Source: Desulfuromonadales bacterium (lineage in GTDB: Bacteria > Desulfobacterota > Desulfuromonadia > Geobacterales > Pseudopelobacteraceae). Taken from it: 64,000 bases of DNA. The stretch spans positions 48,457-112,456 of the forward strand of contig JAENWA010000013.1 in assembly GCA_016650295.1 (NCBI GenBank). Reading direction: 5' to 3'. The notes beneath the pieces were generated by a model. That model did no database searches. It had not been told where the DNA came from and saw only the letters and a list, made by a program, of their open reading frames with translations. Shown piece by piece: positions 13,308 to 39,593 of the stretch. The first letter of the stretch is position 1; each line of letters opens with the position of its first letter. The position numbers and the translations under genes are program-made.

Positions 13308-13340
13308 ACATGTACCTATGTTTCACGTGAAACACGCTCG

Positions 13341-14711: not shown

Positions 14712-14714
14712 GTC

Positions 14715-16343: not shown

Positions 16344-16366
16344 TAGAACTCCAGTTCTGTTCTCAT

Positions 16367-16911: not shown

Positions 16912-16945
16912 GTTACCGGCAGGTACACTCCCGCCGGTCGGACAA

Positions 16946-17095: not shown

Positions 17096-17099
17096 GTCC

Positions 17100-18818: not shown

Positions 18819-18821
18819 GAA

Positions 18822-19026
18822 TATCTTGTTCATAAGGTGTGGATAACTGTTGATAACCTGGGGCCCTGTTGATAACCTGCAAGATGTCGGAAATTCACCA
18901 ACAGCATCAGATCCATAATTGTCACATATAATCAGATCATTGAAAAGTTATCACCATTTTACCAGCGCCTATAATAACAACTATCTTTTAAATATTTAAA
19001 ACATACATTCATATAAGGAGTGAGGC
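18822..19026. promoter_or_regulatory. dnaA-dnaN intergenic DnaA-box cluster plus AT-rich stretch (candidate oriC/DUE)
   Basis: Boxes are TGTGGATAA at 18838-18846, TGTTGATAA at 18848-18856 and 18867-18875, and TTATCACCA at 18948-18956. A strongly AT-rich run follows at about 18957-19015. Confidence 0.6.
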
Positions 19027-20148
19027 ATGGAATTCATAATCGACAAGGAACTCTTTCTTAAATCATTACAGAAGATCCAGGGTATCGTGGAAAAAAGAAC
19101 TTCAATGCCGATCATGTCGAATGTGCTGATCGAAGCAACCGAATCTTCGCTTCACATCACGGCCACAGACCTTGAAGTAGGCATGAAGAGCATCTATCCG
19201 GCAGAGGTCATATCAACCGGCAGAATCACGGTTGGTGCAAAGAAGCTCTACGAAATCGTCAAGGAACTCCCCAACCAGAAAATAACATTTTCAACAAAAG
19301 ACAATGACTGGGTGGAAATCAAGTGCGGCAAGGTCCAATTCAATATTGTCGGACTTTCTCCGGAAGAATTTCCTTACTTTCCTGCGGTAAAGGAAGAGAG
19401 TTTATTTGAAATCGAAAGTTCGCTCCTGAAAGGGATGATTGAAAAGACCTTCTACGCCATCTGTAACGACGAAACAAAATACAATCTGAACGGTCTGTTT
19501 ACGAAGGTTGAAGTAGCGCCCAACGGAGATCAGTTACTCAAGATGGTTGCTACAGACGGGCATCGTCTCTCGATTTCCAACGGCGCGTTCAAGGGCACTG
19601 CCGGTCCTGAACTCCTGAAAGGCGTTATCCTTCCCAAAAAGGGTATCTTTGAGATGAAAAAGATTACCGAAGAAGAGGGCGGAAACCTGCTGTTCGGTTT
19701 TATGGATAACAGTGCCGTCATCAAACGTGGTGATTCCTACATGGTCATGAGGCTTGTAGATGGCGATTTTCCGGACTACAATCGCGTGATTCCGACCGCA
19801 AATGATCGGGTCATAACCGTTAACAAAGAGGATTTTACCCACTCGGTACGCAGGATGGCGATCCTTTCCAGCGAAAAATTCAAAGGGATCATGCTGGAAA
19901 TATCCGATTCAAGCATAAAAATTTCTTCCAGTAACCCTGAACTGGGTGACGCCCGGGAAGATATTGATGTCAGTTACGGTGGAGAACCTATTGCGGTCAG
20001 GTTCAATGCCCGTTATCTTCTGGATGTACTGGCTGTAGCCGAGACGGAAAATGTAGACATGAAATTCAGGGATGAACTCTCACCTTCGATTATTGTTCCA
20101 AGCCAGTCGGACAGCTTTCTGGCCGTGATCATGCCGATGAGGCTGTAA
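19027..20148 (+). CDS. dnaN: DNA polymerase III subunit beta (sliding clamp)
   Basis: 373 aa with full-length DnaN similarity (ending ...FLAVIMPMRL) and the canonical position after dnaA. Confidence 0.97.
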   Translation: MEFIIDKELFLKSLQKIQGIVEKRTSMPIMSNVLIEATESSLHITATDLEVGMKSIYPAEVISTGRITVGAKKLYEIVKELPNQKITFSTKDNDWVEIKCGKVQFNIVGLSPEEFPYFPAVKEESLFEIESSLLKGMIEKTFYAICNDETKYNLNGLFTKVEVAPNGDQLLKMVATDGHRLSISNGAFKGTAGPELLKGVILPKKGIFEMKKITEEEGGNLLFGFMDNSAVIKRGDSYMVMRLVDGDFPDYNRVIPTANDRVITVNKEDFTHSVRRMAILSSEKFKGIMLEISDSSIKISSSNPELGDAREDIDVSYGGEPIAVRFNARYLLDVLAVAETENVDMKFRDELSPSIIVPSQSDSFLAVIMPMRL

Positions 20149-20159
20149 ACAAGTTTCTG

Positions 20160-23673
<3,514 letters not shown>

Positions 23674-23770
23674 GGCATTGGCTGTTGTAGGTTCACGCAA
23701 TTAAAGGTTTTTTGTACCAATTAAACGTTTTTTCCTACATTGAAATTCAAATGTATAAATTAGTTAATTA

Positions 23771-23799
23771 ACGGCTCGTTCCCACGGGCCGTTTTTTTT
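23771..23799 (+). terminator. rho-independent terminator after gyrB
   Basis: A 7-bp stem (CGGCTCG/CGGGCCG) with loop TTCCCA is followed by an 8-T run. Confidence 0.75.
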
Positions 23800-24336
23800 A
23801 TTGTGGCATTAAAACTTTTTGGTTGATTGGTGAACAAGATGAAAAATAAGACAATGTTAAGCCGGCCAGGAAGGCGGCATTGGCGATGGTGAAGGAAGCG
23901 TTCCTGCGCTCAACCTCTTGGTACAGATTGAACTTTCTGTGCTCGCGGCGCAGCTGGTCCAGGCCGGCAATGTTGCCCATCAGGCTGCTCCAGGGGTGTC
24001 CAGACCGCCAGCTTGTCTTCACGCGCCAGCAGGGCATTTTTCCTCTCCTTGCCGGGGTTGAACAGGTCGGGACGGGAGCGGGCAAACTCCGCCACCTTGC
24101 GCAGGTTACCTCGCAGAATGGCAAAGGACTTGCTGTCAGCGGCAATGTGCGGGGTCGGGGGCACTGGGTGTGGAAAGGGCAATGATGGGAAAAGAAAGGA
24201 TGGCGAGGAGAATTACCGATACAAGTGCGTGCAATATGGGGCCCTCCGGTTTGGCTTATTCAGGGTGCGTCAGCTGTTTTGAAGCTGAGTACGGCGGGAG
24301 TACTGCCCGCCGCCTTCTCACCCGGGAGGCTGATTG

Positions 24337-24810
24337 TCAGCCGAGTTCCCTGGCAACGGCCATGATTGATTCAGAATCAGGCAGACCTGCCAGCTGCATC
24401 AGCATAAAATCCTTGACCAGGGCAAGAATCTGCTCGAAACGATCACTGCTGACAGAGAGGTTTTCCGACATGCTGCGGACAACGGCCTGCTCTTTCTCTG
24501 ACATGACACCGTCTGCAAATGCAACCATGATGCAGGTTGCGACGATCATCTCCCTCTGTTCAACATCAGGAAATAGTTCCGCGGACAGGGATACTCCGCC
24601 GATGTCATTGCTGATGGTTTCAAATCCGGGCCATTCTCCGCCATTGGAATTCCTGAAACCTTCATAGAACTGGCCGACCATGGCCACTTCCTCGGCGGTT
24701 CCTGCACTGTCGACATGTGCGATATGCAACATCGCCTTGGTCACGGAAATAACCTGATCTCGGGTAAATGGGGAATCTGTTTTAAGTGGAAACATGATCT
24801 GCTCCTTCAA
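24337..24810 (-). CDS. TerB-like (tellurite-resistance TerB / DjlA-N type) domain protein
   Basis: 157 aa with two repeats of the TerB-type pattern (IAHVDSAGTAEEVAMV and VAFADGVMSEKEQAVV). Its start overlaps the stop of the upstream AAA+ gene by 4 nt. Confidence 0.5.
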   Translation of the reverse strand: MKEQIMFPLKTDSPFTRDQVISVTKAMLHIAHVDSAGTAEEVAMVGQFYEGFRNSNGGEWPGFETISNDIGGVSLSAELFPDVEQREMIVATCIMVAFADGVMSEKEQAVVRSMSENLSVSSDRFEQILALVKDFMLMQLAGLPDSESIMAVARELG

Positions 24811-26636
24811 CGTTTGATATGCAGCCTCAACTCTGTCAGTTTTTCCTGTATCTGCTCCGGCGTCAGCGAGCGGAACCGTTGCGGAAGCAGCGAACGGCGG
24901 GATGTTTCAAACACCGCCAGCATCTCCATATAACGGAGCATGGCTACTTCGCGCGGCGGCAAAAAATCATCGATTGCCAGTACAAACAACTTCTCATCTA
25001 CCACGGACTTTTCCCGCTCGGCAAACTCAAGCGCCAGAAGCGTCAGAGCCTCAAGGTCCGCATTGGAGTACCCATCCAGCGGTGCGCAAATCTTCTCCAG
25101 TGCAGACATTTCGATAGCGCTGGTTACACCGTACCGTCCCAGTATTGCAGAGACAATGGCGGCACGCTCTGCTGCGGTCTCGGCATAGAAGAAAGGTATC
25201 TTTCGATCAAGACGTCCCGGCCGTTTAATATCGGTGTCGAGCTTGTCCGGGCGGTTGGTCATCAGGATAAACAGCACCTGTCCGCGGTTTTCCGGGTCGG
25301 ACATGAACTCCTTCAACCGGGCAATGACACGGGAGCTGGTGCCGCCGTCAGAATCTTCGCTCTGGTTGCCGAAACTCCGGTCCCCCTCATCGATCACCAG
25401 TGCTATCGGCCCCATCGCCTTGACCGTTGACAGGACCCGTTCAAGATTGGCCTCGGTGGAGCCGACCCACTTGGAGCGGAAGTTCTTGAGCGCAATACCG
25501 GACAGTCCGGCCTCTTTGAGAAAGGCCTTGATGACAAAGGTCTTGCCGGCACCCATGGCGCCAACCGCCAGAAGCCCCATCGGGGCCCTGCTGCGGTCGC
25601 CGCTTTTTATCATCCGGGCGATCTCCATCAGCTCTGTCTTGATATGCTCATTGCCCCCCACCGCATCCAGACCATGCCGGGGCTCGATGAATTCAATCAG
25701 ACCGGAACATTCCTTCTCGATCAGTTCACGCTTGCGCCGCCGCACGATCTCGATCATCTCTTCATAGGGATTTTCAGCTTCAGGCAGACTGCGGGCAGGG
25801 TCAATCAGCTGCCTGATTTCGTCCGGTGTCATCCCCGAGGTTATGGCTGCCAGCTTTGCCGCGCGCTCCGTTGCATTGGGGGTTCCCTTGAGCAGCTCGT
25901 CAATCAGGGTCGCCCGCTGTTGTTCGTCAAGCCCCTGCGGCGCGTCGCTGGCAACGATTGTTGCCAGTTGAACGATGCGCAGTCCGGCAGTCTGATCGGC
26001 AAGATGGCCTGCCTGGTCATCGGACATTCCCGGAGCGTAGTGATGAATCGCCAGATCCCGTGTTGCCCGGTCAGGCATCGGAATTTCTATGGCCGCCACC
26101 CGAGGGTTGGCAGGCAGTGCCGGATTGAGTTCGGCAAGGGATTCGGCGATCAGGATGATCAGATTGTCTTTTGCAGAGAGTTCCTCATCAAGAGACCACC
26201 TGTGCAGCGCAATAAAGGCGCTGCGTTCGTCAAGCGAGAGAAACTGCGGTTCCGCCGCAGGAAGCAGGGAGCCGGCGTAGGGAATGATCAGGGCATTTGA
26301 AGGGTATTCCCGCATCCGCCGTTCAAGCGATTCGAATATGCCGGCCAGCCCCTTCCCCTCAAGATGCCGGTATATCTCGTCCTTCTCCGCCGGGCTGCCG
26401 CCATGAAGAACCTTGAGACCACGGTACAGACACAGCTCGAAGATCCGCTGCTTCTTTTCCACAAGCAGAACATCCGCCAAAAACGAAACCAGCCCGTAGC
26501 TCTTGCCGGACAGGAGTGTCCGGTCAAAAACATTTCCGTACAGGATGAAGACGGAGGCCTCACCTGCCAGATATTTCTGGCGGACTGTTTCAGCCCAGCG
26601 GGGCAGCACCGGTTTATTGGTATTCTGAAATTCCAT
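24807..26636 (-). CDS. classic-clade AAA+ ATPase with a long N-terminal domain lacking a P-loop
   Basis: 609 aa. The C-terminal half has Walker A (GAMGAGKT), Walker B (ALVIDEGD) and a second region of homology (NRPDKLDTDIKRPGRLDRKIPF). I could not place the N-terminal ~330 aa in any family. Confidence 0.85.
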   Translation of the reverse strand: MEFQNTNKPVLPRWAETVRQKYLAGEASVFILYGNVFDRTLLSGKSYGLVSFLADVLLVEKKQRIFELCLYRGLKVLHGGSPAEKDEIYRHLEGKGLAGIFESLERRMREYPSNALIIPYAGSLLPAAEPQFLSLDERSAFIALHRWSLDEELSAKDNLIILIAESLAELNPALPANPRVAAIEIPMPDRATRDLAIHHYAPGMSDDQAGHLADQTAGLRIVQLATIVASDAPQGLDEQQRATLIDELLKGTPNATERAAKLAAITSGMTPDEIRQLIDPARSLPEAENPYEEMIEIVRRRKRELIEKECSGLIEFIEPRHGLDAVGGNEHIKTELMEIARMIKSGDRSRAPMGLLAVGAMGAGKTFVIKAFLKEAGLSGIALKNFRSKWVGSTEANLERVLSTVKAMGPIALVIDEGDRSFGNQSEDSDGGTSSRVIARLKEFMSDPENRGQVLFILMTNRPDKLDTDIKRPGRLDRKIPFFYAETAAERAAIVSAILGRYGVTSAIEMSALEKICAPLDGYSNADLEALTLLALEFAEREKSVVDEKLFVLAIDDFLPPREVAMLRYMEMLAVFETSRRSLLPQRFRSLTPEQIQEKLTELRLHIKR

Positions 26637-27349
26637 CAGATCGTTTTTGGCGTTGTGGCCGCGGCCTGTGCGACCCTGGCCCGCTTCATCTCTTCCAGTT
26701 CCTGTCGGGCGGTGATGGAACCGCTGCTCTGGCGCAACTTTGCCAGCTGCACATCCAGATCGGATTCCCTCAGCTCGCTTCCCATCTTGGCCTCGGCCAC
26801 GGTGTTCTTGATATGTTCACGGACGTTGTCAAGCGCCCGGACCTCGGCATCTACCGAAAGCCCATCCAGCTGGTTCTGGATCTTGAGCCGTGCCTGGGCG
26901 CTGAGCATCTGGGCGAGCATGCGGTCCTTTTCATCCTTGAGTTTCTGCACCTCGCTCTTGACCTGCAGCAGGGAGGATTTTGCCTCTTCGGCATCGGTCC
27001 TGGCCTGCTCCATATCCTGTTCAAGAACCTTGATGCTCGCATCCAGAGAATTCTTCTTCTGAATCAGGACGATTCCCAGTTCGTCCTGGCCGGTTGCCAG
27101 CGCCGCATTCAGATCGGCAGTAATGGCCTCAAGTTCTGTTTTTTCTCGTGTCAGTCGGGCATTGATGTCTTCACGCCGCCTCATAATAGCTGCAGTGGCG
27201 GACTTGAGCTTGCCGTACTTGTCGATCATGGAATCTATGGCGTTCTGATAGGCGATCTCCGGATGGTTCTTTTCTACATCGGAAATCCAGAGTGAGACAA
27301 AACCGGCCCAGAGATTTGCAAGTCGTGCTACCAAATTGATGTTGGCCAT
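26636..27349 (-). CDS. PspA/IM30/Vipp1-family (bacterial ESCRT-III-like) protein
   Basis: 237 aa and all-helical coiled coil with PspA-type blocks ([32 protein letters not shown]..., ...[19 protein letters not shown]...). Confidence 0.8.
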
Positions 27350-27385
27350 TTCGGAATCTTCCTTTCGTAAGTAAAGCTGAGGTTT

Positions 27386-28273
27386 CTATGTAGTTTGCGG
27401 GTTTGGTCGGGCGGTCTGTGCCTTTGGCTGGTTAATGGCAGCGCTACGCTGCAGCGGCGAGACCATTCCGGGCAGGGCAGCTTCCAGCTCTCCCGAAAGT
27501 TCGGCCTCGATATCTTCCTGAAGTCTGAGCTTTTCTATCGAATCCTCAAGCCGCGAGCCAACATCCTCGGAGGCCGGAGTGGTCATGATGGTCTGGTAGA
27601 TCTCCTCCAACTGGTCCGGCATGGAGAGCATGGCCGCCTCAATGGCGGTTTTGCGGCTCATCATCCTGTTGTGCCGCTCAACCAGGGCAAAGTACTCCGC
27701 CTTTGCCTTCTGGAGCTGCCGTGCATCCACTCCCGGTCGTGCGGACTCAAGCTCCCGGTTGATCATCGCCACCCGCTGCTCGATCTCTTTCAGGTTGATG
27801 GATTCGGCCCGGTCCTCCATAACCAGCCGTGCAAGCCAGATGCACAGGTACTCGATCGTTGCATCGTCCAATCGTTCAATCTCGACTATCGGCAGGCTAG
27901 TCCGGGTTTCTGCGGCATGTCGGTAGAGTGACTCCACCCGTTCCGACATCCTGCGCCAGGTCCTGAGAGTCTGCTCAAATGCGGTCCTTTTCTTGTCCCG
28001 CGCCTGGATCTCGTCAAGAAGCCTGCTGCGTGCCGCCTCCCTGTTTTTTGCACGGAATCGTCTGTCAACGGCATCACGAAACGTGATGGAACCGGGAATA
28101 TACATCGCGGCAATGAACTCTCCCGCTGCGAAGGCTATCAGAGGGAGTGCGCCGAATCCGAAACCGAGCGGTATGGAGAGCAGTGCAGCGGCGGCCATGG
28201 AGCCGAGGCCGGCGTACAGGTTGCCCTGGCTGGTAAGCATCTCTTTTAGATAGGATGGTTGTCTCTCTGTCAC
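27386..28273 (-). CDS. membrane-anchored coiled-coil protein of unknown function (two N-terminal TM helices)
   Basis: 295 aa. The hydrophobic hairpin LGSMAAAALLSIPLGFGFGALPLIAFAAGEFIAAMYIPG is followed by a long helical, charged region. Topology is reminiscent of XpaC-type proteins, but I did not recognise a family. Confidence 0.6.
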   Translation of the reverse strand: MTERQPSYLKEMLTSQGNLYAGLGSMAAAALLSIPLGFGFGALPLIAFAAGEFIAAMYIPGSITFRDAVDRRFRAKNREAARSRLLDEIQARDKKRTAFEQTLRTWRRMSERVESLYRHAAETRTSLPIVEIERLDDATIEYLCIWLARLVMEDRAESINLKEIEQRVAMINRELESARPGVDARQLQKAKAEYFALVERHNRMMSRKTAIEAAMLSMPDQLEEIYQTIMTTPASEDVGSRLEDSIEKLRLQEDIEAELSGELEAALPGMVSPLQRSAAINQPKAQTARPNPQTT

Positions 28274-28283
28274 AGTGCGTCCT

Positions 28284-29144
28284 TCAGACTGTTACCCGGA
28301 CAGTGCCTTTGCCCGGGGCTTTGTGCAACTGTGCCAGAATCCGTTTTTCGTGCTGCAGCGCTTCTTCCGAACGCTGCCATGTGGTTGAGCGGGGGCGTGG
28401 TACGTCGATGGTGAAATCATCGGCGATCTTGGCGGGTTGCGGTGAAAGTACAATCACCCGGTCACCAAGCACCAGCGCCTCCGTGACATCGTGGGTGACA
28501 AAAACAACCAGACAGGGGCGCTCTTTGTACAGGTCAATGAGCAGCAGCTGCATCTCCTCCCTGGTTTGGGCATCCAGCGCTCCGAAGGGTTCATCCATGA
28601 GCAGGATGCGAGGTCTCAGAACCAGTGCCCTGGCGAGCGCGACCCGCTGGTTCTGGCCGCCTGAAAGCTGTGACGGGCGCAGATTCCTTTTGTCCGCCAA
28701 ACCAACCGACTCCAGCATATCGGATATGCGCTTTCTCCACTCCGCCTCCGGGACGCGCTTTTTCCAGAGGTTGAGGCGAAACGGAAAGGCAACGTTGTCA
28801 AACACGGAAAGGTCGGGGCGGTTCGAGTAGCGCTGAAACACCATGACCGAATCGTCATGGGCATCATGGCATTCGACGCCGTCAATAAGTATTTTTCCGG
28901 ATGTGGGGGTTTTGGCGTTCATCGGCCTGACACCACCCAACATGTGAAGGATCGTGCTCTTGCCGCAGCCGGAAGGGCCGAGCAGCATGTTTATTCCCGG
29001 ACGCTCAAAAACAAGATTTACCCCGTCAACAACGCGAGTAATCCCGCCGCCGGAAGCAGGATACTCTTGGACAATGTCCTTCAGTTCTATCGAAACTGCC
29101 GTCGCTGCTTCCGGCTGCGGTGACGAATCGCTCTGGGCACTCAT
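28284..29144 (-). CDS. ABC transporter ATP-binding protein (NitT/TauT nitrate/sulfonate/bicarbonate type)
   Basis: Walker A (GPSGCGKST), signature (LSGGQNQRVALARAL) and Walker B (LLMDEPFGALD) are present. The ATG at 29144 (MSAQSDS...) overlaps the permease stop as ATGA. The longer track ORF (to 29411) runs through the permease gene. Confidence 0.9.
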   Translation of the reverse strand: MSAQSDSSPQPEAATAVSIELKDIVQEYPASGGGITRVVDGVNLVFERPGINMLLGPSGCGKSTILHMLGGVRPMNAKTPTSGKILIDGVECHDAHDDSVMVFQRYSNRPDLSVFDNVAFPFRLNLWKKRVPEAEWRKRISDMLESVGLADKRNLRPSQLSGGQNQRVALARALVLRPRILLMDEPFGALDAQTREEMQLLLIDLYKERPCLVVFVTHDVTEALVLGDRVIVLSPQPAKIADDFTIDVPRPRSTTWQRSEEALQHEKRILAQLHKAPGKGTVRVTV

Positions 29145-29956
29145 AGCTGGGTCTCCCAGGGGTAGAGTCTGCGTTTGATGTAGATCATCAGCTGATAGGT
29201 GATCAGCGCCAGGGCCACAATGACGATGATACCGGCAAAGACCTGATCCCAGGCGCTGAAACGGCGGGCATTCTGTATGAGCTGGCCAAGCCCGACCTTG
29301 GCATTGACGTATTCTGCAACGGTTATGTAGGTCCACATGACAGAGAATGCCACGATGATGGCATCGGCAATGCGGGGCATCGCCATCGGGATGACCGCCT
29401 TGCGGATACACTCCCAGGGGGTTGCACCCAGGTCACGGGCACTGATCCAGTAGCTCTGGGGAACGGCCTGAATCGCGTCACGAACCATCGGTATCAGGTA
29501 GACCACGGCACCGGTAAACAGAAATCCGATCTTCATCGCTTCACCGATTCCGAGCCACATCACCAGTATGGGCAGTAGAGCAACTACCGGCGCCGAGCGG
29601 AAGGGATCCACCAGGGGCGAGATGGCCGCATTTATCCGCTGTGAAGCCCCCATCAGGATTCCAACCGGGATGCCGATGACGATCACCAGTATTCCAGCGA
29701 CCACCAGCCGGCCGACCGACCAGAGTGTCGCAATAAACAGCATGCTTTCACCATCGTTCCAGGCCAGGTATCCGAATGCCCTGACCACATCCCACGGTGC
29801 CGGAAGCCTGGCCGGACTGACGAGTCCGGTGACAGCCAGCAGGCTCCACAGAACAAGCACTGAAACGACCGAGCCGATTCCCAGGGCGCGGCTCTGCGAT
29901 GGCGGAGGAGACAGGTAAGGATTCCAGAAACCGTTCATACCGTTAGCGCCCGCCAT
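29141..29956 (-). CDS. ABC transporter permease (NitT/TauT family)
   Basis: 271 aa with about 6 TM helices and an EAA-like loop (ISARDLGATPWECIRKAVIPMAMPRI). Confidence 0.85.
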   Translation of the reverse strand: MAGANGMNGFWNPYLSPPPSQSRALGIGSVVSVLVLWSLLAVTGLVSPARLPAPWDVVRAFGYLAWNDGESMLFIATLWSVGRLVVAGILVIVIGIPVGILMGASQRINAAISPLVDPFRSAPVVALLPILVMWLGIGEAMKIGFLFTGAVVYLIPMVRDAIQAVPQSYWISARDLGATPWECIRKAVIPMAMPRIADAIIVAFSVMWTYITVAEYVNAKVGLGQLIQNARRFSAWDQVFAGIIVIVALALITYQLMIYIKRRLYPWETQL

Positions 29957-31607
29957 AGACGGCGATACGGGTGGTGCGGTTCATGGCGCGGCACTCCTCG
30001 AGCGACAGCCCGTCGGCCGCAGGATTGGCCTCGTTACACAACGGCAGGTCCGATCCGTTGCCCTTGATCTTGAAACGATCCTTCGAAAACTCCCACTGAC
30101 TGGCAAGATACTCCACAACCGCCCTGGCCCGTGCTCCGGAAAGCCGCATGTTGGTTGAACGGGCACCGGTAGAATCCGTATTTCCGCTCACTTCAAAGTA
30201 CGCCTTGCCATTGTTTTCAATGAACGGCACCATCTCTTCATCAATGGTCTTTTGCGCCCGTTTCGTCAACGTGGCGGTACCGGTGGAAAAACCGACCGTG
30301 ACCGGCTTGGTAACAATGGCTGACTTCTGTTGCGTCGCCTGGGTCAGCTCTGCCTGTGAGAAGGTTGTCTGCGGCTTGGCGGCTGCCTTGGAGGCCCCCT
30401 TGTCCTGCCCCAGCAGCGACTTTATGAAACGATAGTCAAAGCTGTCCTGGGGGGCGATCACCGGGGACTTGGGGTTTGCCAGGGCGCCGGCCTTGCGGTA
30501 GATCTCGTCAAAACGGCGATACACCCGCTCATAATGGTTTGTGCCGCCCGCCAGACCAAGTATGCGGGCGTTGTCTTCCAGACCTGTCCAGACCAGGTTG
30601 CCAAAGAGGCTCTTGACAAAGGGTTTCCCTTCCTTGTCGGCAAGAAGCTTGAAGAACTCTTCGGTCTGCACCAGGGCGTCAACCGCATTGTCCGGATTGG
30701 AGCGGGCACCCTTGACCCCATCCATCCAGCCATCCACAAACTTCTGCACCACCGCCTGGCCATCAGGTTTGGCAAGTACCCGCGAATCGCAAACCATAAC
30801 GTCAAAGATCAGGTTTGTGGCGGTCTTGGTCGAATAGACTACATGGGAACCCTTCACGTTGCGCTGGGCAAGGGCAAGATCCGGATCCCACAGCACCGCG
30901 GCATCCACATTGCCAGATTCATAGGCGGCACGCACGCCGGCGGTTCCTTCTTCGGCGTTGATGAAGACGGTCTTGATGCTTTCCTTCTTACGGGCGGTAA
31001 GGGAGGAGTTGTCGATGGCATCTATCAGCATGCCGTGGGACGGGGTAAACTGCAGCAGGGCCACTGTTTTGCCGGCAAGATCCTCTACGGAGCGGATCGC
31101 CGGGTCACGGGCAATAATCGCGTCGCCACCCTGCGTGTTGTCAACAATCATGACCGCCTTGCCATCCTTGCCGGCATTGCGGAGGTTCGGCTGTTCCTGA
31201 GCCCAGAAATCTGACGTGCGCCAAGCGCAATGGGCAGCACCCGATTCATAGATGGTTGACAGGGTCGGAATATCATCCTGAATCAGAAACTGGAGGTTCA
31301 ATCCCTTGCCGGCATAAATCGAGTCAGGCCGGGTAACAAGACTGTTGCCATTGGCAAGCAACGCAGGCGCATAGCCGTGAAAGCTTACCAGGCTCACCTT
31401 CAGAGGATTGTTCGCCGAACCTAATGGTGCATTCGGATCCGCAGGGGGCGCAACAGCTTTTGCACCTTTATCGGCCTTCTTCTCGGTGACAGCGCTCTTC
31501 GTCTTGGAAAAGCGTTCTTTCAGTCCCAGGTTCCAGGCAGCGGAGGCAGCAACTCCGATTACGATTACAGAAACCAGTCCTTTTGCCAAAGGGGTCAGCT
31601 GAGCCAT
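29943..31607 (-). CDS. ABC substrate-binding protein (NMT1/SsuA-like) fused to a C-terminal OmpA-type peptidoglycan-binding domain
   Basis: 554 aa with an N-terminal TM anchor and a periplasmic binding domain. The C-terminus has OmpA_C motifs (SGNTDSTGARSTNMRLSGARARAVVEYL...NRTTRIAV). Confidence 0.75.
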   Translation of the reverse strand: MAQLTPLAKGLVSVIVIGVAASAAWNLGLKERFSKTKSAVTEKKADKGAKAVAPPADPNAPLGSANNPLKVSLVSFHGYAPALLANGNSLVTRPDSIYAGKGLNLQFLIQDDIPTLSTIYESGAAHCAWRTSDFWAQEQPNLRNAGKDGKAVMIVDNTQGGDAIIARDPAIRSVEDLAGKTVALLQFTPSHGMLIDAIDNSSLTARKKESIKTVFINAEEGTAGVRAAYESGNVDAAVLWDPDLALAQRNVKGSHVVYSTKTATNLIFDVMVCDSRVLAKPDGQAVVQKFVDGWMDGVKGARSNPDNAVDALVQTEEFFKLLADKEGKPFVKSLFGNLVWTGLEDNARILGLAGGTNHYERVYRRFDEIYRKAGALANPKSPVIAPQDSFDYRFIKSLLGQDKGASKAAAKPQTTFSQAELTQATQQKSAIVTKPVTVGFSTGTATLTKRAQKTIDEEMVPFIENNGKAYFEVSGNTDSTGARSTNMRLSGARARAVVEYLASQWEFSKDRFKIKGNGSDLPLCNEANPAADGLSLEECRAMNRTTRIAVYGGR

Positions 31608-31627
31608 ATATTCTCTCCTGTTTTTTA

Positions 31628-32305
31628 TTATTCAGCTACGAACTGAGCCGTAATCTCACCCAAGCGTTCAATCTCTGTACCGATTCTGCGTGACTCCCTG
31701 CCGACAGTTTCCCGGGCCGCCCGAACGCCTGCTTCAATAGCGGTTGTCTGCTGGGCTGATTTGGAAATCTCCCGTTCAAGCAACTTTTCCAGCTCAGAGA
31801 TCTGCTTGCGTATCTCGGACGTAGATTTCTCCAGGCCGGACCTGATATCTTCTACCTGTGCCACCGACTGCTGTTCGGCTGCCTGCAGCTGTACATCCAG
31901 AAGCTGTTTATAGCTGTTCAGTGTGTCGATCTTGCGTTTCGCATCATCGACGCAATCGCTTATCTGCCAGTTATCATCCGCGGCATCCATAGCCTGAACA
32001 GCGGCCTTGCGGGTTACTGCATCCATGGTGCGCAAACCTTCCAGCAGTCGCAGCAGTTTTTCAGCCGGAAAAGGGGACTGGGGCAGACCCGTTGCGGCAT
32101 AAATATCTTCTATTGGTCTGTTTTCAATGATAGTGCTCCCGGGTGGGAACACGTTTTGGAGAGGTGGCGGTTCTGGTGGGTCAGGTGGAACATCCACCTG
32201 ATCGGACGATGGCATATCAAGGTTTTCTATGCCGGCCTCAACTTTTTCCTCATCACTCAACTCAACAAGATTCGCCTTTGCAAGCAGATTCAAAAGACCC
32301 TTCAT
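31628..32305 (-). CDS. hypothetical coiled-coil protein, first gene of the operon
   Basis: 225 aa with a proline-rich linker (PPDPPEPPPLQNVFPP) followed by a heptad-rich helical region. It lies 20 nt upstream of the binding-protein gene. No family recognised. Confidence 0.55.
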   Translation of the reverse strand: MKGLLNLLAKANLVELSDEEKVEAGIENLDMPSSDQVDVPPDPPEPPPLQNVFPPGSTIIENRPIEDIYAATGLPQSPFPAEKLLRLLEGLRTMDAVTRKAAVQAMDAADDNWQISDCVDDAKRKIDTLNSYKQLLDVQLQAAEQQSVAQVEDIRSGLEKSTSEIRKQISELEKLLEREISKSAQQTTAIEAGVRAARETVGRESRRIGTEIERLGEITAQFVAE

Positions 32306-32775
32306 GGCTCCTCCATAAATAACAGTTCATTACAGGGGTTTTCGAAAGACAGCTCATATCGTTTACCACCATTTAGGGGATGTAGCAACTGGAGAACATG
32401 CAAGACATCACTATATTTGTTATAAACTCTAAAACTTTGCAGCTCCTGCCTGTTGATGCGCCAAGCAGGAGTTGCATATCAAGGAATAATTCATTTTGCT
32501 GCTACCAAACCCATCAGCTCCGCCATGCGCGATGCCGGGGTATCACTGACCCGCTGGCCGTCGTGGTAGAAAGTTATCAACTGCAGAGGGCCGTCCTTGG
32601 CGGCCTTGATTGCCACATCATCCGGTGTAAAGGTCGTACGACCCAGGGATCTCTTGGTCGGCCAATCGATGCCGCTGGGGGCTGTCAGGGTCAAGTCTTG
32701 AAAAGTCAGATTTGCAATGGCGCTCTGTTAGGATGAATTACTTTTTTTCACTGCACAGCATAGAAACAGGCAAAA

Positions 32776-33238: not shown

Positions 33239-33649
33239 TTAACCAATCGGATAGAGGGTAATTCCCGCCGGTTTGCCGAGCGCCTCGAAGTGGCTGTCCA
33301 GGGTTGCCACCTGAACCTTGGCCGAAGCGGCGGCTGCGGCAATGAAGCAGTCGGACAGGCCGACGGTGATACCTTTGCGACGCAGTTTGCCTGACAATTT
33401 ACCGGCAGCAGCCCATAATTCGGGAGTTTCGGGAATGAAAGTAAAAACCTTCAGGAAGTCATCGAGAACGGTAAGTTCCTTGTCTGACTTCGCCCCTTGC
33501 ATCAGTTCGGCAAGGATGATGCCGCAGCAGACGACCTGATCGTTGTCGATAAGCTTCGTTACCATGCTGTGATACGGTTCGCGCTGACGAAAAAACTCAA
33601 TCCAGATCGAGGTGTCTATCAGTACACTAGCCAAGGCGATTGTCTCCAT
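33239..33649 (-). CDS. vapC: type II toxin VapC (PIN-domain ribonuclease)
   Basis: PIN signature is present (VLIDTSIWIEFF...ILAELMQG...LSDCFIAAAA...ATLDSHF). The ATG at 33649 is preferred over 33661. The gene overlaps the vapB 3' end. Confidence 0.8.
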   Translation of the reverse strand: METIALASVLIDTSIWIEFFRQREPYHSMVTKLIDNDQVVCCGIILAELMQGAKSDKELTVLDDFLKVFTFIPETPELWAAAGKLSGKLRRKGITVGLSDCFIAAAAASAKVQVATLDSHFEALGKPAGITLYPIG

Positions 33650-33836
33650 GGCGCAGTTCATCGGCAGTGCCGGTAAACTCCATATTTCCGGCCATGGCCT
33701 TGATGCGGCTCAGCTTGCGCAGGCGGATCTCGTCCTTGACTGCGGTAACGACAGCTTCGGTCTTGCTTCTGGCCCCCAACAGAGCCATTAATTCTGTCAG
33801 CAGGTCCTGGGGAAGGGTGACTGTAGCGCGTGTCAT
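33627..33836 (-). CDS. vapB: type II antitoxin, VapB-like
   Basis: 69 aa (MTRATVTLPQDLLTELMALLGARSKTEAVVTAV...) lying directly upstream of, and overlapping, the PIN toxin gene. Confidence 0.7.
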   Translation of the reverse strand: MTRATVTLPQDLLTELMALLGARSKTEAVVTAVKDEIRLRKLSRIKAMAGNMEFTGTADELRHGDNRLG

Positions 33837-34051: not shown

Positions 34052-36061
34052 CTAGTATGGCAGGCTGATGACGATAAGCACTACCAGAGTGATGAAGGTG
34101 TAGAGGATGTAGAGGTGCAGATGTCCGTGCTGAAGCCTCCTGACAGGCAGGAACTTCTCGTAGATGCGAGCGAGTATGGGTAGATATATCCGTTCTAGAA
34201 CTGCTTCCGGCACATGGCTTTCAAAATGAGGATCAGCAGGGAATGGGCCTATGATGTGCGGCGCGTGACGCTGGAGGCGCAGAACACCAGCAAAGAGGTT
34301 CACCAGTATGTCGGCAAAGGAAGATGCACTGTATTGCATTCTGCTGCCCGGTTCGAGATAGCCGCATCCCCAGGTGGCGGCGCTGGAAACGGTTGCTTTG
34401 TTCACCTTGTTGCGGTACCAGTACGTCAAACAGAACGTCACGGCAAGCAGGGCAACGGCAAGGATCGAAATCCAGGCCAAAGGAGCAACGGCGGCCAAGA
34501 AAATGGGGCCTGTAGAGCGTGGCAACCAGGCGCTTACAGCAGATTCCAGAAGGTGGGCTATTGCTACAGGCACCACCCCGATGATGAGACAGACCATGGC
34601 CAATATCATCAAGGGGAGACGCATGGTCCATTTTGCTTCATGGACCGTTGCCGGGAGTTGCGAGCGCGGCGCTCCAAGAAATACAACGCCTACGACCTTG
34701 ACGAAACAGGCGACGGCCAGACCACCGATCAGGGCCAGGGCTGGAGCAGCGATGGCCGTAGCGATGGCCCCTGCACCGCTGCCGTAAATAGTCCCGTTGA
34801 AAAAACCGAGATAAATCAGGAATTCACTGACAAACCCGTTGAGTGGAGGTAATCCGCAAATTGCCACGGAGCCGATAATGAACGATACGGCGGTCCAGGG
34901 CATGGGACGCAGCAGACCTCCCATGCGATCGATTTCACGGGTTGCAACCGCATGAATGACCGAACCGGCTCCAAGAAAAAGAAGCGCCTTGAAGGTGGCA
35001 TGGTTCAGCACGTGCAAGAGCGCACCGGCCAGTCCCAACAAAATAAGGATTGGTGAACCGCTGGCCGAACCGATCAATGCCGTGCCGATCCCCATGGTGA
35101 TAATGCCGATGTTTTCGATACTGTGATAGGCCAACAGGCGCTTGAGGTCGTGCTGTCCCAGGGCAAAGAGTACACCGACGATCCCGGATGCCATGCCGAG
35201 GACAATGACGACCATGCCCCACCAGAGCGGTATCCCCGTATAAAACGACAAAGTCCGCACCAGGCCGTAGATGCCGATCTTCAGCATGACACCGGACATG
35301 ATGGCGGATACGTGACTGGGGGCGTTGGCGTGGGCAGACGGGAGCCAGATGTGAAGCGGCATGAGTCCGGCCTTGAACCCGAACCCGAACAGGGCCACCA
35401 GGAAGATGGCTGCGGACAGAGGCGCCGTGGCGGCCAGAGAACCGGCATTGGGGAATGTGAAGGCGCCGGTGCTGCTCTTCAGCAGTGCGAACAGGGCAAA
35501 CAGGGCCAAGGTTCCGGTATGGGTGCAGATCATATAGAGAGTGCCGGCGTCACGGACTTCCGGGGTGTGGTCGTCAGTGGTCAGAACGAAATAGGCGGCC
35601 AGCGCCATTATCTCCCAGGCCAGCAGAAACATGCCCGCCGAACGCGCCATGATAATGAAGATCATGGATGACACCAGCAGTCCGAAAAAAAAGGTCATTT
35701 TACGAACAGTGCGGGGATTGGTCAGGGCCGGCCAGTAGTCCAGGGCATAGATGCTGCAGCAGGCGGCAACAATCAGGATCGGCAGGGCAAAGAAGGCGGT
35801 GAGCGGGTCAATCCCGCATTCAGCAGGACCGAAGGGAAGCGGCCAGGCCAATTGATAGGTAACGTAGTGACGATGGATAAGCGTCATGACGGAACCGGCA
35901 ATCCCTCCAACCGCAGCAGCAACCAGTGCCAACGTCGCTAAGCGCTGGCCAAGAACCGGGTTCAGAACGCGCAGCAAGAGTGGCAGACCTGATAAAGCAG
36001 CCGTTAGTGCCGCTCCTATCAGGAGCATGGCAGAAAGGTTTGCCGCCGGGTCGCCGGTCAT
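34052..36061 (-). CDS. HyfB/NuoL-type proton-conducting antiporter-like membrane subunit (orphan paralog)
   Basis: 669 aa and polytopic, with conserved blocks (LAWEIMALAAYFVLT, GFKAGLMPLHIWLPSAHANAPSHVSAIMSGVMLKIGIYG). It is clearly paralogous to the gene at 37608-39593. Confidence 0.85.
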   Translation of the reverse strand: MTGDPAANLSAMLLIGAALTAALSGLPLLLRVLNPVLGQRLATLALVAAAVGGIAGSVMTLIHRHYVTYQLAWPLPFGPAECGIDPLTAFFALPILIVAACCSIYALDYWPALTNPRTVRKMTFFFGLLVSSMIFIIMARSAGMFLLAWEIMALAAYFVLTTDDHTPEVRDAGTLYMICTHTGTLALFALFALLKSSTGAFTFPNAGSLAATAPLSAAIFLVALFGFGFKAGLMPLHIWLPSAHANAPSHVSAIMSGVMLKIGIYGLVRTLSFYTGIPLWWGMVVIVLGMASGIVGVLFALGQHDLKRLLAYHSIENIGIITMGIGTALIGSASGSPILILLGLAGALLHVLNHATFKALLFLGAGSVIHAVATREIDRMGGLLRPMPWTAVSFIIGSVAICGLPPLNGFVSEFLIYLGFFNGTIYGSGAGAIATAIAAPALALIGGLAVACFVKVVGVVFLGAPRSQLPATVHEAKWTMRLPLMILAMVCLIIGVVPVAIAHLLESAVSAWLPRSTGPIFLAAVAPLAWISILAVALLAVTFCLTYWYRNKVNKATVSSAATWGCGYLEPGSRMQYSASSFADILVNLFAGVLRLQRHAPHIIGPFPADPHFESHVPEAVLERIYLPILARIYEKFLPVRRLQHGHLHLYILYTFITLVVLIVISLPY

Positions 36062-36744
36062 GAGACGGTTTTGCCGAGATCATTTTCGATTTCAAGAACG
36101 GCAGCCATGATCGCCTCGGAGTTGCATTGTTTGCCGAGGATGTCCCGCAAACGCTGATCCCGCAGACAATAGGCCAGCTTTGAGAGCAGATGCAGGTGCA
36201 TCCTGATGGTCGGAGAGATGATGGTGAAAAGTATCTGAACCGGCTTACCGTCCAATGCCCCGAAATCAACCGGCTCCGAGAGAAAACAGAGTGCAATCTT
36301 CGGGACGGGCAACTGCACCAGGATCGGATTACGGACATGTGGAATGGCGATACCATCGCCGACTGCAGTTGTTCCCATGGCTTCACGGGCCAGCAGCACC
36401 TGCAGGATGAAGTCGGGATCGATATCCGGCGGCAAGTCCAAGACCTTCACGGCATTTCGCAGCACAGCTTCCTTATCGTCACCCGGAAAACCACAATGGA
36501 TGCCGCCGGCTTGCAGCGCCTGGCTCAATGTCGGCAACGGACGATTATCCGCATCAGGCATCTTGTACAGGGCCGGATTCACTTTTATTCCGTGCTCCGT
36601 TGCCCATTCCAGCAGGTCCACCGGGTTGATCTGGTAATTCCCCTGGATGGATTCAGCGGGTAAATTGTCTTTTTTAATCCAGCGCACAACAGTTTTTTCA
36701 TCGACATTCAATGCCTGCGCGGCTTCGGACGTTTCAAGCAGCAT
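36058..36744 (-). CDS. HTH (excisionase/MerR-type) domain fused to PTS EIIA(Ntr/Fru)-type domain
   Basis: 228 aa. The N-terminus is LLETSEAAQALNVDEKTVVRWIKKDNLPA. The EIIA domain has the phosphorylatable-His motif GDGIAIPHVR. Its stop overlaps the start of the hyfB-like gene by 4 nt. Confidence 0.8.
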   Translation of the reverse strand: MLLETSEAAQALNVDEKTVVRWIKKDNLPAESIQGNYQINPVDLLEWATEHGIKVNPALYKMPDADNRPLPTLSQALQAGGIHCGFPGDDKEAVLRNAVKVLDLPPDIDPDFILQVLLAREAMGTTAVGDGIAIPHVRNPILVQLPVPKIALCFLSEPVDFGALDGKPVQILFTIISPTIRMHLHLLSKLAYCLRDQRLRDILGKQCNSEAIMAAVLEIENDLGKTVS

Positions 36745-37607: not shown

Positions 37608-39593
37608 GTGTTTTATTCCGTTGAACCGACGATATTCCTACTGGCAGCAGCAATACTGATGGCGTTTTCAGGTGTGCCGGGTCTCGCGTTACATCATCCG
37701 GCCCGAGGACAACGAATAGCCGCTTTTTTCGTTGTTATTGCATCTTTTCTGGGTGAATACGCCGTCATTACTCTCCTTAACGGTTCCACGGGAGCAGTCT
37801 ACCAGATTGACTGGCCGCTGCCGTTCGGCCCGGCCCTCTTGTCCGTCGATCAGCTCTCGATTATCTTCCTCCTGCCACTCTTCCTGGTTGCCGGGTGTGT
37901 CTCGGTATATTCAGTCGCTTACTGGCCGGCCAGAAAGCATTCCAGCGCCGGAAAACTTACGCTGTTTCTCGGAATCTTCGCAGCAGCGATGGTCATAGTG
38001 GTTATGGCCCGCAACAGCGTACTGTTTATTATGGCATGGGAAGTGATGGCCCTGTCGGCCTATTTCCTGTTGACGGCCGAGCAACAGAGTGCCGAGGTGC
38101 AGCGGGTCGGTACGGTCTATCTGATTGCCACACACACCGGAACCATGGCGCTTTTAGCTATGTTTTCGCTCCTGCGCGGGACGATCGGCACGTTTGAGTT
38201 TCCGCTATCGCATTCACTTTCCCCGTCTGTGCCGGTTGCATCGGTCATTATCATCACGGCCCTGATCGGTTTTGGCGGCAAAGCAGGCCTTATGCCTCTG
38301 CACTTCTGGATGCCCGGCGCCCATGCCAACGCCCCCAGCCATGTTTCTGCCATGATGTCCGGCGTGATGCTGAAGATGGGTGTTTATGGCATTCTGCGGA
38401 CATTGTCATTTTTTGACGCCCTTCCGGTCTGGGTTGGCTGGCTGATCCTCCTCTTGGGCGCCTGGTCGGCAATCAACGGCATTGCCCTGGCAGCCGGCCA
38501 ACGCGACCTGAAACGTCTCCTGGCCTGCAGCAGCATCGAGAATGTCGGCATTATCTTCATCGGCATCGGTCTGGCGCTGGTTGGAATGCAACTGCAGGCA
38601 CCCTACCTGGTTGTATGTGGTCTCTTCGGAGCCTTCATCCATATCATCAATCATGGTCTGTTCAAATCGCTCCTCTTTCTGGGCAGCGGGGTGCTGATCC
38701 ATGCTGTCGGTACCCGTGAGATAGACCGGATGGGGGGCCTGGCCCGACGCATGCCGATCACGTCTCCGCTCTTTCTGGTCGGTTCCCTGGCCATCTGCGG
38801 GCTGCCGCCGCTCAATGGTTTCGTCGGTGAGCTGTTTCTCTACGTCGGCGCCATCACCGATGGGATTGTTGCCCCGTTGCCTCTGGCGGCCCTGGTGGCA
38901 CCGGTCCTGGCATTGGTTGGAGGGTTGGCGGTGATTACTTTCGTTAAACTGTATGGCATCATTTTTCTTGGCGTTCCCCGCTCAGTCGAAGCCGCGCACG
39001 GCCATGAAGCAACTCCGGCCATGACCGTTCCGATGGTTCTGCTGGCGGCAGGTTGCCTGGTTGCAGGGTTGGCGCCTGTGCTGCTGGTGCGACTGGTTAC
39101 CCCGGCGGTCGCTTTGTATGGTGATCTGGCCGCTCCTGTCATTGCCAAGGTTACCAGTCTGGTTCCTATAGTGCCGCTCACGATTGCGAATATCCTGCTC
39201 GTCTCCCTGTTCCTGGTGATCGGGACTGCGTACCTGCTTCGTCTGCGCAGGTTGCCACGCTCCCGGGGGGCTACCTGGGGGTGCGGCTACCTTGAACCGA
39301 CAGCCAGAATGCAATATACCGGCACATCCTTCAGTGAGATGGCGATTAACGTGTTAGGGGCAATCGTTGCCCCCAACCGCCGGAAACCCCGGCTTGCCGC
39401 AGCTTTTCCGCCTGCCGGGACACGTTTTCAGTACACGGTTACCGAAACCGTGCTGGACCGGATTCTGACACCGATCTTTGAAGTTGTCGGCCTGGCCTTT
39501 TCCTATCTCAGGAGAGTGCAGCACGGCCAGCTTCATATCTATGTACTGTATATCTTTGCCACGTTGTGCGTCCTGATGTTCTGGAGGAATTAA
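37608..39593 (+). CDS. Ehr complex subunit, HyfB/NuoL-like antiporter subunit (EhrA-like)
   Basis: 661 aa with a GTG start and conserved HyfB blocks (MAWEVMALSAYFLLT, GGKAGLMPLHFWMPGAHANAPSHVSAMMSGVMLKMGVYG). Confidence 0.85.
   Translation: MFYSVEPTIFLLAAAILMAFSGVPGLALHHPARGQRIAAFFVVIASFLGEYAVITLLNGSTGAVYQIDWPLPFGPALLSVDQLSIIFLLPLFLVAGCVSVYSVAYWPARKHSSAGKLTLFLGIFAAAMVIVVMARNSVLFIMAWEVMALSAYFLLTAEQQSAEVQRVGTVYLIATHTGTMALLAMFSLLRGTIGTFEFPLSHSLSPSVPVASVIIITALIGFGGKAGLMPLHFWMPGAHANAPSHVSAMMSGVMLKMGVYGILRTLSFFDALPVWVGWLILLLGAWSAINGIALAAGQRDLKRLLACSSIENVGIIFIGIGLALVGMQLQAPYLVVCGLFGAFIHIINHGLFKSLLFLGSGVLIHAVGTREIDRMGGLARRMPITSPLFLVGSLAICGLPPLNGFVGELFLYVGAITDGIVAPLPLAALVAPVLALVGGLAVITFVKLYGIIFLGVPRSVEAAHGHEATPAMTVPMVLLAAGCLVAGLAPVLLVRLVTPAVALYGDLAAPVIAKVTSLVPIVPLTIANILLVSLFLVIGTAYLLRLRRLPRSRGATWGCGYLEPTARMQYTGTSFSEMAINVLGAIVAPNRRKPRLAAAFPPAGTRFQYTVTETVLDRILTPIFEVVGLAFSYLRRVQHGQLHIYVLYIFATLCVLMFWRN

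Follow-up and report, generated by a model that had tools for sequence, protein, structure and literature searches.

A conserved operon linking a PspA-family protein to a Cdc48-type tandem AAA ATPase in a Desulfuromonadales bacterium

The 64,000-nucleotide (nt) stretch of contig JAENWA010000013.1 from a Desulfuromonadales bacterium, which is referred to below as the window, contains eight minus-strand genes at positions 24337-32305. In this cluster, a protein assigned to the PspA/IM30 family of the ESCRT-III superfamily is encoded next to a tandem AAA ATPase, in which the first ring (D1) is predicted to be dead and the second ring (D2) is predicted to be active. Across 80 loci of other species, these genes are found again in conserved order, a linkage that is far above chance. 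The ATPase is of the Cdc48 type and not of the Vps4 type. We give an even chance to the reading that the operon encodes an envelope-spanning membrane-maintenance machine, in which the ATPase hexamer would thread PspA subunits to disassemble or remodel membrane-bound polymers. This operon family provides a concrete and widely conserved candidate for a system that disassembles or energises bacterial ESCRT-III-type polymers, such as those of PspA and Vipp1. The value of the finding is tempered, because the association and the analogy have already been published from comparative genomics and the mechanism is one that we infer.

The features of the operon are as follows, in the order of transcription.

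32306-32480, minus strand: probable promoter and 5' leader of the operon, suggested by an AT-richer stretch upstream of the first gene
31628-32305, minus strand: 225-amino-acid (225-aa) protein, encoded first in the operon; ribosome-binding site GGAGGAG
29943-31607, minus strand: fusion of a solute-binding protein (SBP) and an OmpA domain (SBP-OmpA), 554 aa, with Pfam and NCBIfam matches
29141-29956, minus strand: permease of an ATP-binding cassette (ABC) importer, 271 aa, BPD_transp_1, TauC/SsuC-like
28284-29144, minus strand: ABC ATP-binding subunit, 286 aa, NitT/TauT-type, ABC_tran
27386-28273, minus strand: inner-membrane protein with two transmembrane (TM) segments (2-TM protein), 295 aa, matching no family
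26636-27349, minus strand: PspA/IM30-family protein, 237 aa, PF04012
24807-26636, minus strand: tandem AAA ATPase, 609 aa, PF00004
25707-26636, minus strand: residues 1-310 of the ATPase, predicted degenerate D1 (AlphaFold2 (AF2) model and Foldseek)
24810-25679, minus strand: residues 320-609 of the ATPase, D2 (PF00004 and motifs)
24337-24810, minus strand: TerB-domain protein, 157 aa, Pfam TerB

The initial annotation described eight tightly packed minus-strand genes, and all of its coordinates, overlaps and gaps are exact when the open reading frames (ORFs) are located in the window. The TerB and ATPase genes overlap by 4 nt, the ATPase and PspA genes by 1 nt, the ABC ATPase and permease genes by 4 nt, and the permease and SBP-OmpA genes by 14 nt. 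The other junctions are gaps of 36 nt (PspA and 2-TM protein), 10 nt (2-TM protein and ABC ATPase) and 20 nt (SBP-OmpA and 225-aa protein). The start of the ABC ATPase is set at the ATG at 29144, which gives the 4 nt overlap with the permease stop. Shine-Dalgarno-like sequences precede five of the starts, and the remaining three starts overlap the preceding gene, which suggests translational coupling. No convincing terminator is detected inside the cluster when the region is scanned against shuffled sequence (10 terminator-like sites as compared with 9.7 expected, no excess). From spacing and synteny, we infer that the eight genes are transcribed as one unit. A promoter scan of 32306-32480 on the operon strand gives no match. 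A sigma-54 promoter of the PspF type upstream of the operon is rejected as well, with no match near 32306-32500 and with fewer matches across the window than in shuffled sequence.

Conservation of the cluster and variation of its importer

One genome per species was scanned, and an ATPase relative is detected in at least 497 genomes. The 80 loci that were retrieved come from Geobacter/Trichlorobacter, Accumulibacter, Propionivibrio, Sulfuritalea, Undibacterium, Hydrogenophaga, Rhodoferax, Polaromonas and Xanthomonadales-type metagenome-assembled genomes (MAGs). The eight window proteins were searched against all ORFs of these loci, and the counts given below refer to the loci with enough flanking DNA. 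PspA is encoded immediately upstream of the ATPase in 77 of 77 loci, and the TerB protein is encoded immediately downstream of it in 71 of the 72 assessable proteobacterial and Desulfuromonadales loci. The 2-TM protein is present in 74 of 75 loci and the 225-aa protein in 62 of 63. The permease and SBP-OmpA are each present in 39 of 63 loci, as is the cognate ABC ATPase in approximately 39 of 63, and all eight genes are found in identical order in 36 loci. The linkage spans Desulfuromonadales, Rhodocyclales, Burkholderiales and Xanthomonadales-type genomes, and the carriers of ATPase relatives include culturable strains of Rhodoferax, Hydrogenophaga, Undibacterium and Trichlorobacter. The initial annotation regarded the genes as one unit and staked this view on PspA, the AAA ATPase and TerB being neighbours in other genomes; these results bear it out.

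The order of the genes is varied in a few loci. In Propionivibrio (L002 and L003), the 225-aa gene is shifted from the first to the last position, after TerB, and is still located within the cluster. In Undibacterium (L017, 8271-9128; also L020-L023, L032 and L036), an extra ORF of 285 aa, which matches no Pfam family, is located between the 2-TM and PspA genes.

Of 1.84 billion cluster representatives, 702 match the N-terminal domain of the ATPase at E<=1e-3, and most of these are 560-620 aa long. The neighbourhoods of a few such distant members (L081, L082, L083/L084 and L085) were analysed. The PspA-AAA pair is kept in L081 and L083/L084, in which this domain is just 34-35% identical to that of the window. 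L081 contains the pair and an unrelated small gene. L083/L084 contains, in this order, SBP-OmpA, permease, ABC ATPase, 2-TM-like protein, two small genes, PspA and AAA ATPase. In the latter cluster (L083, 1-9464, and L084; 34% identity), small ORFs of 102, 146, 135 and 109 aa replace the 225-aa and TerB proteins, and a Cas12f1-like TnpB gene then follows. TerB is not detected in the distant clusters L081 and L083. The PspA-AAA core extends well beyond the clade of the window, and the TerB and 225-aa proteins are clade-specific.

SBP-OmpA consists of an N-terminal TM anchor (MAQLTPLAKGL...WNLGLKE), an NMT1/SsuA-type solute-binding domain and an OmpA-like peptidoglycan-binding domain, with scores of 45 bits (Pfam OmpA), 22 bits (Pfam NMT1) and 68 bits (NCBIfam SsuA_fam). 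The permease matches BPD_transp_1 of Pfam at 88.5 bits and the TauC model at 128 bits, which is below the cut-off of 342. The ABC ATPase matches ABC_tran at 95 bits and does not reach the cut-off of any of the SaoA, ntrCD and SsuB-type models. By these family matches the importer is classified as a NitT/TauT-type ABC transporter, for which every substrate-specific equivalog model remains below its cut-off.

Approximately 33 loci, in Hydrogenophaga, Rhodoferax and others, lack the importer and contain two different genes between the 225-aa and 2-TM genes (L077, 6085-8328; also, for example, L034-L039, L045 and L056). One of them encodes a small TM protein with Sel1/TPR repeats, and the other encodes a 527-aa protein with two PG_binding_1 domains and an SBP_bac_8 (PotD-like) domain. 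At its N-terminus, the small protein has a TM anchor (MASLTPLSKGLIGLAIVGAMASAVWHLGLKE) that is homologous to the N-terminal anchor of the window SBP-OmpA (MAQLTPLAKGLVSVIVIGVAASAAWNLGLKE). The permease and ABC ATPase are dispensable. In contrast, a periplasmic protein that binds both peptidoglycan and a solute is a constant of the system, which is realised by two non-homologous pairs of domains. This constancy of the wall-binding SBP, together with the optional transporter, speaks for the periplasmic protein as a built-in sensor or tether of the machine, with a role beyond that of receptor for a co-located importer. The initial annotation tied the module both to solute import and to the cell wall. 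The link to the wall holds throughout, whereas that to import is partly right, since a wall-anchored binding protein is kept but the two other importer genes are not always present. Another link to the cell wall is seen in Rhodoferax-type loci, in which TerB is directly followed by a PBP1C-like gene with Transgly, Transpeptidase and BiPBP_C domains (L077, 12195-14471; also L053, L056, L057, L076 and L080).

The absence of the importer genes from about one-third of the related loci, and the ordinary NitT/TauT type of the transporter, would also be expected if a sulfonate/taurine-type ABC importer and a PspA stress module were simply two unrelated units placed side by side. However, the importer genes are embedded between the 225-aa gene upstream and the 2-TM and PspA genes downstream, in the same order in at least 36 species, and loci that lack them contain instead a non-homologous SBP that binds the wall, along with the conserved TM anchor. 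In addition, the SBP carries an OmpA domain, which is unusual in a plain importer. It is therefore highly unlikely that the cluster represents two unrelated units.

The tandem ATPase and its partner proteins

The ATPase has a 100% identical counterpart in a Desulfuromonadales MAG. It matches the classical AAA family PF00004 at 85 bits, at residues 356-482. Its AF2 model, which was built with 36 homologues, has a mean predicted local distance difference test score (pLDDT) of 86.5 and a predicted template-modelling score (pTM) of 0.80. In this model, residues ~12-310 form an alpha/beta core with a helical lid (pLDDT ~90), and residues ~320-609 form a canonical AAA module. When the model is compared with known structures by Foldseek, the whole chain is aligned to D1 and D2 of Rix7, p97/Cdc48, NVL and Afg2 over 585-640 columns, with full-length E values of 5e-20 to 1e-18 and template-modelling scores of 0.5-0.6, and the matches include substrate-engaged p97, Cdc48 and Rix7. 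The initial annotation noticed an N-terminal region of about 330 aa without a P-loop. The lack of a P-loop is correct, and the region itself can now be identified from the model and Foldseek as a degenerate D1 AAA domain, that is, a dead D1 ring.

The position of the P-loop in D1 is occupied by LYGNVFDR, which lacks the Walker A lysine, and that of Walker B by LIIPYAG, which lacks the acidic pair. These degenerate motifs are highly conserved across homologues. D2 contains Walker A (GAMGAGKT), Walker B (VIDEGD, within LVIDEGD), a pore loop (SKWVG), sensor-1 (N461) and the arginine fingers R472 and R475 within KRPGRLD (RPGRLDRKIPF). The Walker A and B motifs, the pore loop and the arginine fingers are invariant or nearly invariant in homologues, so that the three motifs quoted in the initial annotation are both present and conserved. 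Judged from these motifs, D1 is predicted to be catalytically dead, and D2 has every motif of an active, substrate-threading classical AAA domain. The D2 motifs are common to all classical AAA proteins and do not discriminate Vps4 from other families. The C-terminal extension of the ATPase past the AAA lid (FLPPREVAMLRYMEMLAVFETSRRSLLPQRF; window 24807-24980, residues ~553-609) is almost invariant across the family.

The family of the ATPase is indicated by three comparisons. Its NCBIfam scores are 80.7 bits for CDC48 (cut-off 802.65), 63.9 bits for PAN, 59.8 bits for FtsH and 39.6 bits for CdvC (cut-off 650). The best solved relatives by sequence are VAT and D2 of p97 (E ~1e-37), and one of the VAT alignments spans residues 227-583. 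The top 60 sequence matches in the PDB are all tandem AAA proteins of the Cdc48 group (VAT, p97/Cdc48, Afg2/SPATA5, NVL and Rix7), and Vps4 is not among them. On the basis of the family scores, the PDB sequence matches and the Foldseek alignments, the ATPase is a Cdc48-type tandem classical AAA protein and not a Vps4-type protein. No MIT or Vps4_C domain is detected in it by Pfam. Membership of Vps4 is therefore rejected, because these domains are missing, the fold is a D1-D2 tandem and the CdvC score (39.6 bits) is lower than the CDC48 score (80.7 bits). The initial annotation called the ATPase Vps4-like, which is right in so far as it is a classical-clade AAA protein with an intact pore loop and arginine fingers, but wrong for its family and architecture. 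The chain begins at D1, without an N-terminal double-psi-barrel domain that binds cofactors, and the ATPase probably needs separate adaptors for this reason.

Because its nearest relatives in structure and sequence (Cdc48, p97, VAT and Afg2) are general segregases, the ATPase could be an extractase or quality-control unfoldase for membrane proteins, with a role like that of Cdc48, Msp1 or FtsH. Its clients would be other envelope proteins, such as damaged transporters, the 2-TM protein or the anchored SBP, and PspA would only seal or stabilise the membrane in the meantime. The operon is rich in membrane proteins, and distant members of the ATPase family occur without PspA, as such a role would allow. 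However, the adjacency of PspA in all 77 assessable loci, with a 1 nt overlap in the window, suggests a stoichiometric partnership and not a bystander, and domain searches of the eight proteins reveal no protease or degradation partner in the cluster. This explanation is considered to be unlikely.

The PspA-family protein matches PF04012 (PspA_IM30) at 63 bits, as compared with a gathering threshold (GA) of 33.9, over residues 8-225 of 237. Among solved Vipp1 structures, it is similar to Synechocystis sll0617 (E=6.8e-8, residues 28-224) and Nostoc Vipp1 (5.5e-7). It does not reach the cut-off of the E. coli-type PspA equivalog TIGR02977 (24.2 bits as compared with 242.95). By these scores the protein is assigned to a divergent subfamily of PspA/IM30. 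Its N-terminus is markedly hydrophobic-amphipathic, and a C-terminal segment, LxKLRQSSxxxTA...MK, is conserved. A Pfam search of the eight operon proteins detects no PspB, PspC or PspF domain, in agreement with the initial annotation, the domain assignments of which also hold for PspA_IM30, AAA, TerB, SBP-OmpA, the permease and the ABC ATPase.

PspA may instead act on the ATPase, much as E. coli PspA inhibits PspF by binding to its AAA+ domain. It would then be an inhibitor or adaptor that is released upon stress and gates an ATPase with another output, such as control of the ABC importer or of wall-linked proteins. A regulatory contact between PspA and an AAA+ protein is established for the PspA-PspF pair (summarised in PMC7619361), and the operon contains no transcription factor. 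However, PspF is of another AAA+ clade and depends for its action on a DNA-binding domain, which is absent here, and the ABC importer is dispensable in a third of the loci. A regulatory role of this kind is quite unlikely.

The TerB protein matches PF05099 of Pfam at 41.4 bits (GA 24.4), with only the C-terminal part of the profile aligned (71-116 of 118), and it is weakly similar to PDB 2ou3 (E=0.008). Its similarity to the TerB-like region of DjlA (NCBIfam, 24 bits) is a lead only.

The 295-aa and 225-aa proteins match no family, as the initial annotation indicated. The 295-aa protein consists of a two-TM hairpin (~residues 16-61) and an all-helical cytoplasmic domain of ~200 residues. The basic residues that follow the second TM segment suggest that both ends of the hairpin are cytoplasmic. 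Its AF2 model has a pLDDT of 73 and a pTM of 0.62, with residues 70-230 mostly above 85, and its C-terminal helices are located at 129-176, 184-231, 238-251 and 256-266. These helices could form a hairpin followed by short helices, which is not counted as evidence. No Snf7 or PspA match is obtained with Pfam in 25 members of the family at E<=5. Comparison of the family with the window PspA family by hhalign gives E=0.15-0.26 with a probability of <1%; this profile-profile comparison includes no Snf7 profile, and the ESCRT-III fold is conformationally plastic. The top 50 Foldseek matches of the model in the PDB all have E>0.1, with no ESCRT-III structure among them, and a PDB profile search gives nothing significant.

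In the 225-aa protein, an N-terminal amphipathic motif (MKGLLNLLAKANLVEL) is conserved and a helical block (PAEKLLRLLxGL...AMDAADDNW) strongly so, the Pro-rich linker between them is variable, and the C-terminus is a coiled coil. Its family gives no Pfam or PDB match. The possibility that it is a divergent PspA, which is the protein at this position in the published operon of Handelsmanbacteria described below, is rejected, because hhalign gives E=0.12-0.15 and no Pfam or PDB family is found.

Proposed mechanism and known systems

In the reading that the operon encodes a membrane-maintenance machine, PspA would polymerise on the cytoplasmic side of the inner membrane, wherever this is under stress or being remodelled. 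The PspA polymer would be positioned or nucleated by a membrane platform that consists of the 2-TM protein and possibly also the 225-aa protein. The ATPase hexamer would then be recruited by an adaptor, because it lacks a substrate-binding N-domain of its own, and the best candidate for this adaptor or regulator is the translationally coupled TerB protein. The hexamer would thread PspA subunits through its KWVG-lined pore, so that the polymer is disassembled, recycled or actively remodelled. Classical AAA hexamers move substrates by the aromatic residues of their pore loops, and Vps4 disassembles ESCRT-III in this manner. The threading proposed here would be the same action carried out by a Cdc48-type enzyme, as a functional analogy and not as a family homology. 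Through the wall-anchored periplasmic protein, the machine may respond to a periplasmic ligand or to envelope state. Where the binding domains of this protein are swapped, its conserved TM anchor is retained in a protein of its own, and in the variant represented by the window the SBP may also feed the importer.

Several points weigh against this reading. PspA is a presumed substrate or binding partner of the ATPase, and the single transcription unit is likewise a deduction, from spacing and synteny. The ATPase has no MIT domain, and no MIM-like motif is established in PspA. L082 and L085 contain distant ATPase relatives without a detectable neighbouring PspA, which indicates that this family of enzymes is not tied to PspA alone. 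Because the distant clusters lack TerB, its role as an adaptor is speculative. Finally, the 'divergent Snf7' label that was published for the TM protein is not confirmed by Pfam, hhalign or Foldseek. The membrane-remodelling module proposed in the initial annotation is accordingly still plausible in function, but not with the family that was given to its ATPase.

Operons of this type have been described from comparative genomics by Ravi et al. (mSystems 2024, PMC11237479; preprint 2020). In that paper, PspA is encoded together with an inactive-AAA/AAA protein, a TM protein, ABC genes and a PBPB-OmpA protein, and ATP-dependent membrane remodelling, explicitly likened to Snf7-Vps4, is inferred; the examples include OGG56892.1 of Candidatus Handelsmanbacteria (Table S3) and AEY64321.1 of Clostridium. 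The window locus has these components in co-directional genes. The two share PspA, a tandem AAA protein with a dead N-terminal copy, an SBP with OmpA, a permease and an ABC ATPase, as well as a helical TM protein encoded just before the PspA and AAA genes. They differ in that PspA is encoded first in the published example, in which the TerB and 225-aa proteins are not listed, whereas the window operon starts with the 225-aa gene and ends with those of PspA, the ATPase and TerB in direct succession. The predicted dead N-terminal AAA copy of the window ATPase confirms the description of Ravi et al. The window locus is a further member of a published, computationally described operon class, and neither the association nor the ESCRT-III/Vps4 analogy is new; the initial annotation rediscovered an association already published in silico. 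Its statement that the architecture has not been characterised experimentally agrees with our literature searches, in which no experimental work on an operon of PspA and a tandem AAA protein was found. The near-universal presence of the TerB and 225-aa proteins in this clade, the transporter-less variant with its TM anchor and the structural confirmation of a Cdc48-type tandem appear to be additions to the published description, so far as that description is accessible.

The ESCRT-III/Vps4 systems (archaeal CdvB/CdvC and eukaryotic CHMPs/VPS4) resemble the window operon in that the gene of an ESCRT-III-superfamily protein adjoins that of a classical-clade AAA protein. In both, the AAA protein has an aromatic pore loop, which is SKWMG in Vps4 and SKWVG in the window, and two arginine fingers, and by analogy their working principle would be the same. 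They differ in that the window ATPase has neither MIT nor Vps4_C, and is not single-ringed but a tandem of dead D1 and D2 that is closest to Cdc48/VAT. The likeness to Vps4 is one of analogy, or of independent recruitment within the classical clade, and not of orthology. The ATPase resembles Cdc48/p97/VAT, Rix7/NVL and Afg2 in its full-length fold and in the sequence of D2. It differs from them in lacking the N-terminal cofactor-binding domain and the Walker A and B motifs of D1, and from the Cdc48 family in scoring far below the CDC48 cut-off and in having PspA and TerB as partners, not ubiquitin-type adaptors.

The enterobacterial Psp system (PspF-PspABC) shares with the window operon an effector of the PspA family, which there contacts the AAA+ protein PspF. 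It differs in that the window operon contains no PspB, PspC or PspF, its PspA is not an equivalog of E. coli PspA, and its AAA protein belongs to the classical clade and has no DNA-binding domain. In chloroplasts, VIPP1 oligomers are assembled and disassembled by HSP70B-CDJ2-CGE1, which are ATP-driven chaperones acting on a polymer of the PspA family. The ATPase of that system is of the Hsp70 class and is not operon-linked, and the similarity of the TerB protein to DjlA is a faint echo of it.

A more specific proposal, which we make tentatively and to which we give less than an even chance, is that the operon encodes an independently arisen bacterial counterpart of ESCRT-III/Vps4. In this proposal, a Cdc48-type AAA protein with a dead D1, recruited by TerB, would unfold PspA within a trans-envelope complex, the periplasmic arm of which would be a ligand sensor tethered to peptidoglycan. 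The conserved TM anchor of this arm, together with the 2-TM and 225-aa proteins, would constitute a previously unrecognised membrane platform. If this is true, it contradicts the statement in a 2025 review (PMC7619361) that a Vps4-like ATPase regulator of PspA appears to be absent from bacteria. If the mechanism proposed for the operon holds, ATP-driven remodelling of ESCRT-III polymers would be general to all domains of life, though carried out by different AAA enzymes, and the wall-anchored binding protein would represent a new kind of coupling from the periplasm to the cytoplasm.

Chromosomal setting

The operon is located ~0.6 kilobases downstream of, and convergent with, dnaA-dnaN-recF-gyrB, and the locus belongs to the core genome beside the replication origin, without anomaly in its guanine-cytosine (GC) content. 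A plasmid or mobile origin is rejected, because there is no plasmid match at E<=1e-30, no GC anomaly and the neighbours are core-genome genes. These results also bear on the explanation that the TerB protein, the AAA ATPase and a membrane effector form an anti-phage or abortive-infection system. TerB domains are found in stress and defence loci, and the operon proteins give weak, generic matches to models of IetA/IteA-type ATPases (36 bits) and ZorB/MotB (25 bits). However, the site beside dnaA-dnaN-recF-gyrB is a core-genome site, with no GC anomaly and no such plasmid match, synteny is stable within genera, and the operon proteins match no specific model of PADLOC 2.0. Assignment to a known defence system is rejected, since only the generic similarity to IetA and ZorB is found, and an anti-phage function is extremely improbable.

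The ~540 bp between the gyrB terminator and the TerB stop (window 23770-24336) contain just an unconserved 115-aa ORF with a TTG start, and searches of the 80 related loci by blastn and tblastx reveal no conserved extra gene or RNA in this region. The upstream neighbours of the operon are a PIN-domain ORF (33239-33661, minus strand), two Proton_antipo_M (Mrp/Nuo-type) genes (34052-36061 and 36058-36744, both minus strand) and a gene for a protein with helix-turn-helix (HTH) and PTS_EIIA_2 domains (37608-39593, plus strand). These genes are unrelated to the cluster and are not kept beside it in relatives. On the other side, a strong plus-strand terminator is located 3' of gyrB at 23770-23793. 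The region at 11415-23673 represents the neighbourhood of the chromosomal origin, with mnmG, mnmE and yidC on the minus strand, followed by dnaA, dnaN, recF and gyrB on the plus strand, and the dip of the GC content to 0.43-0.47 at ~16-20 kilobases of the window is probably oriC.

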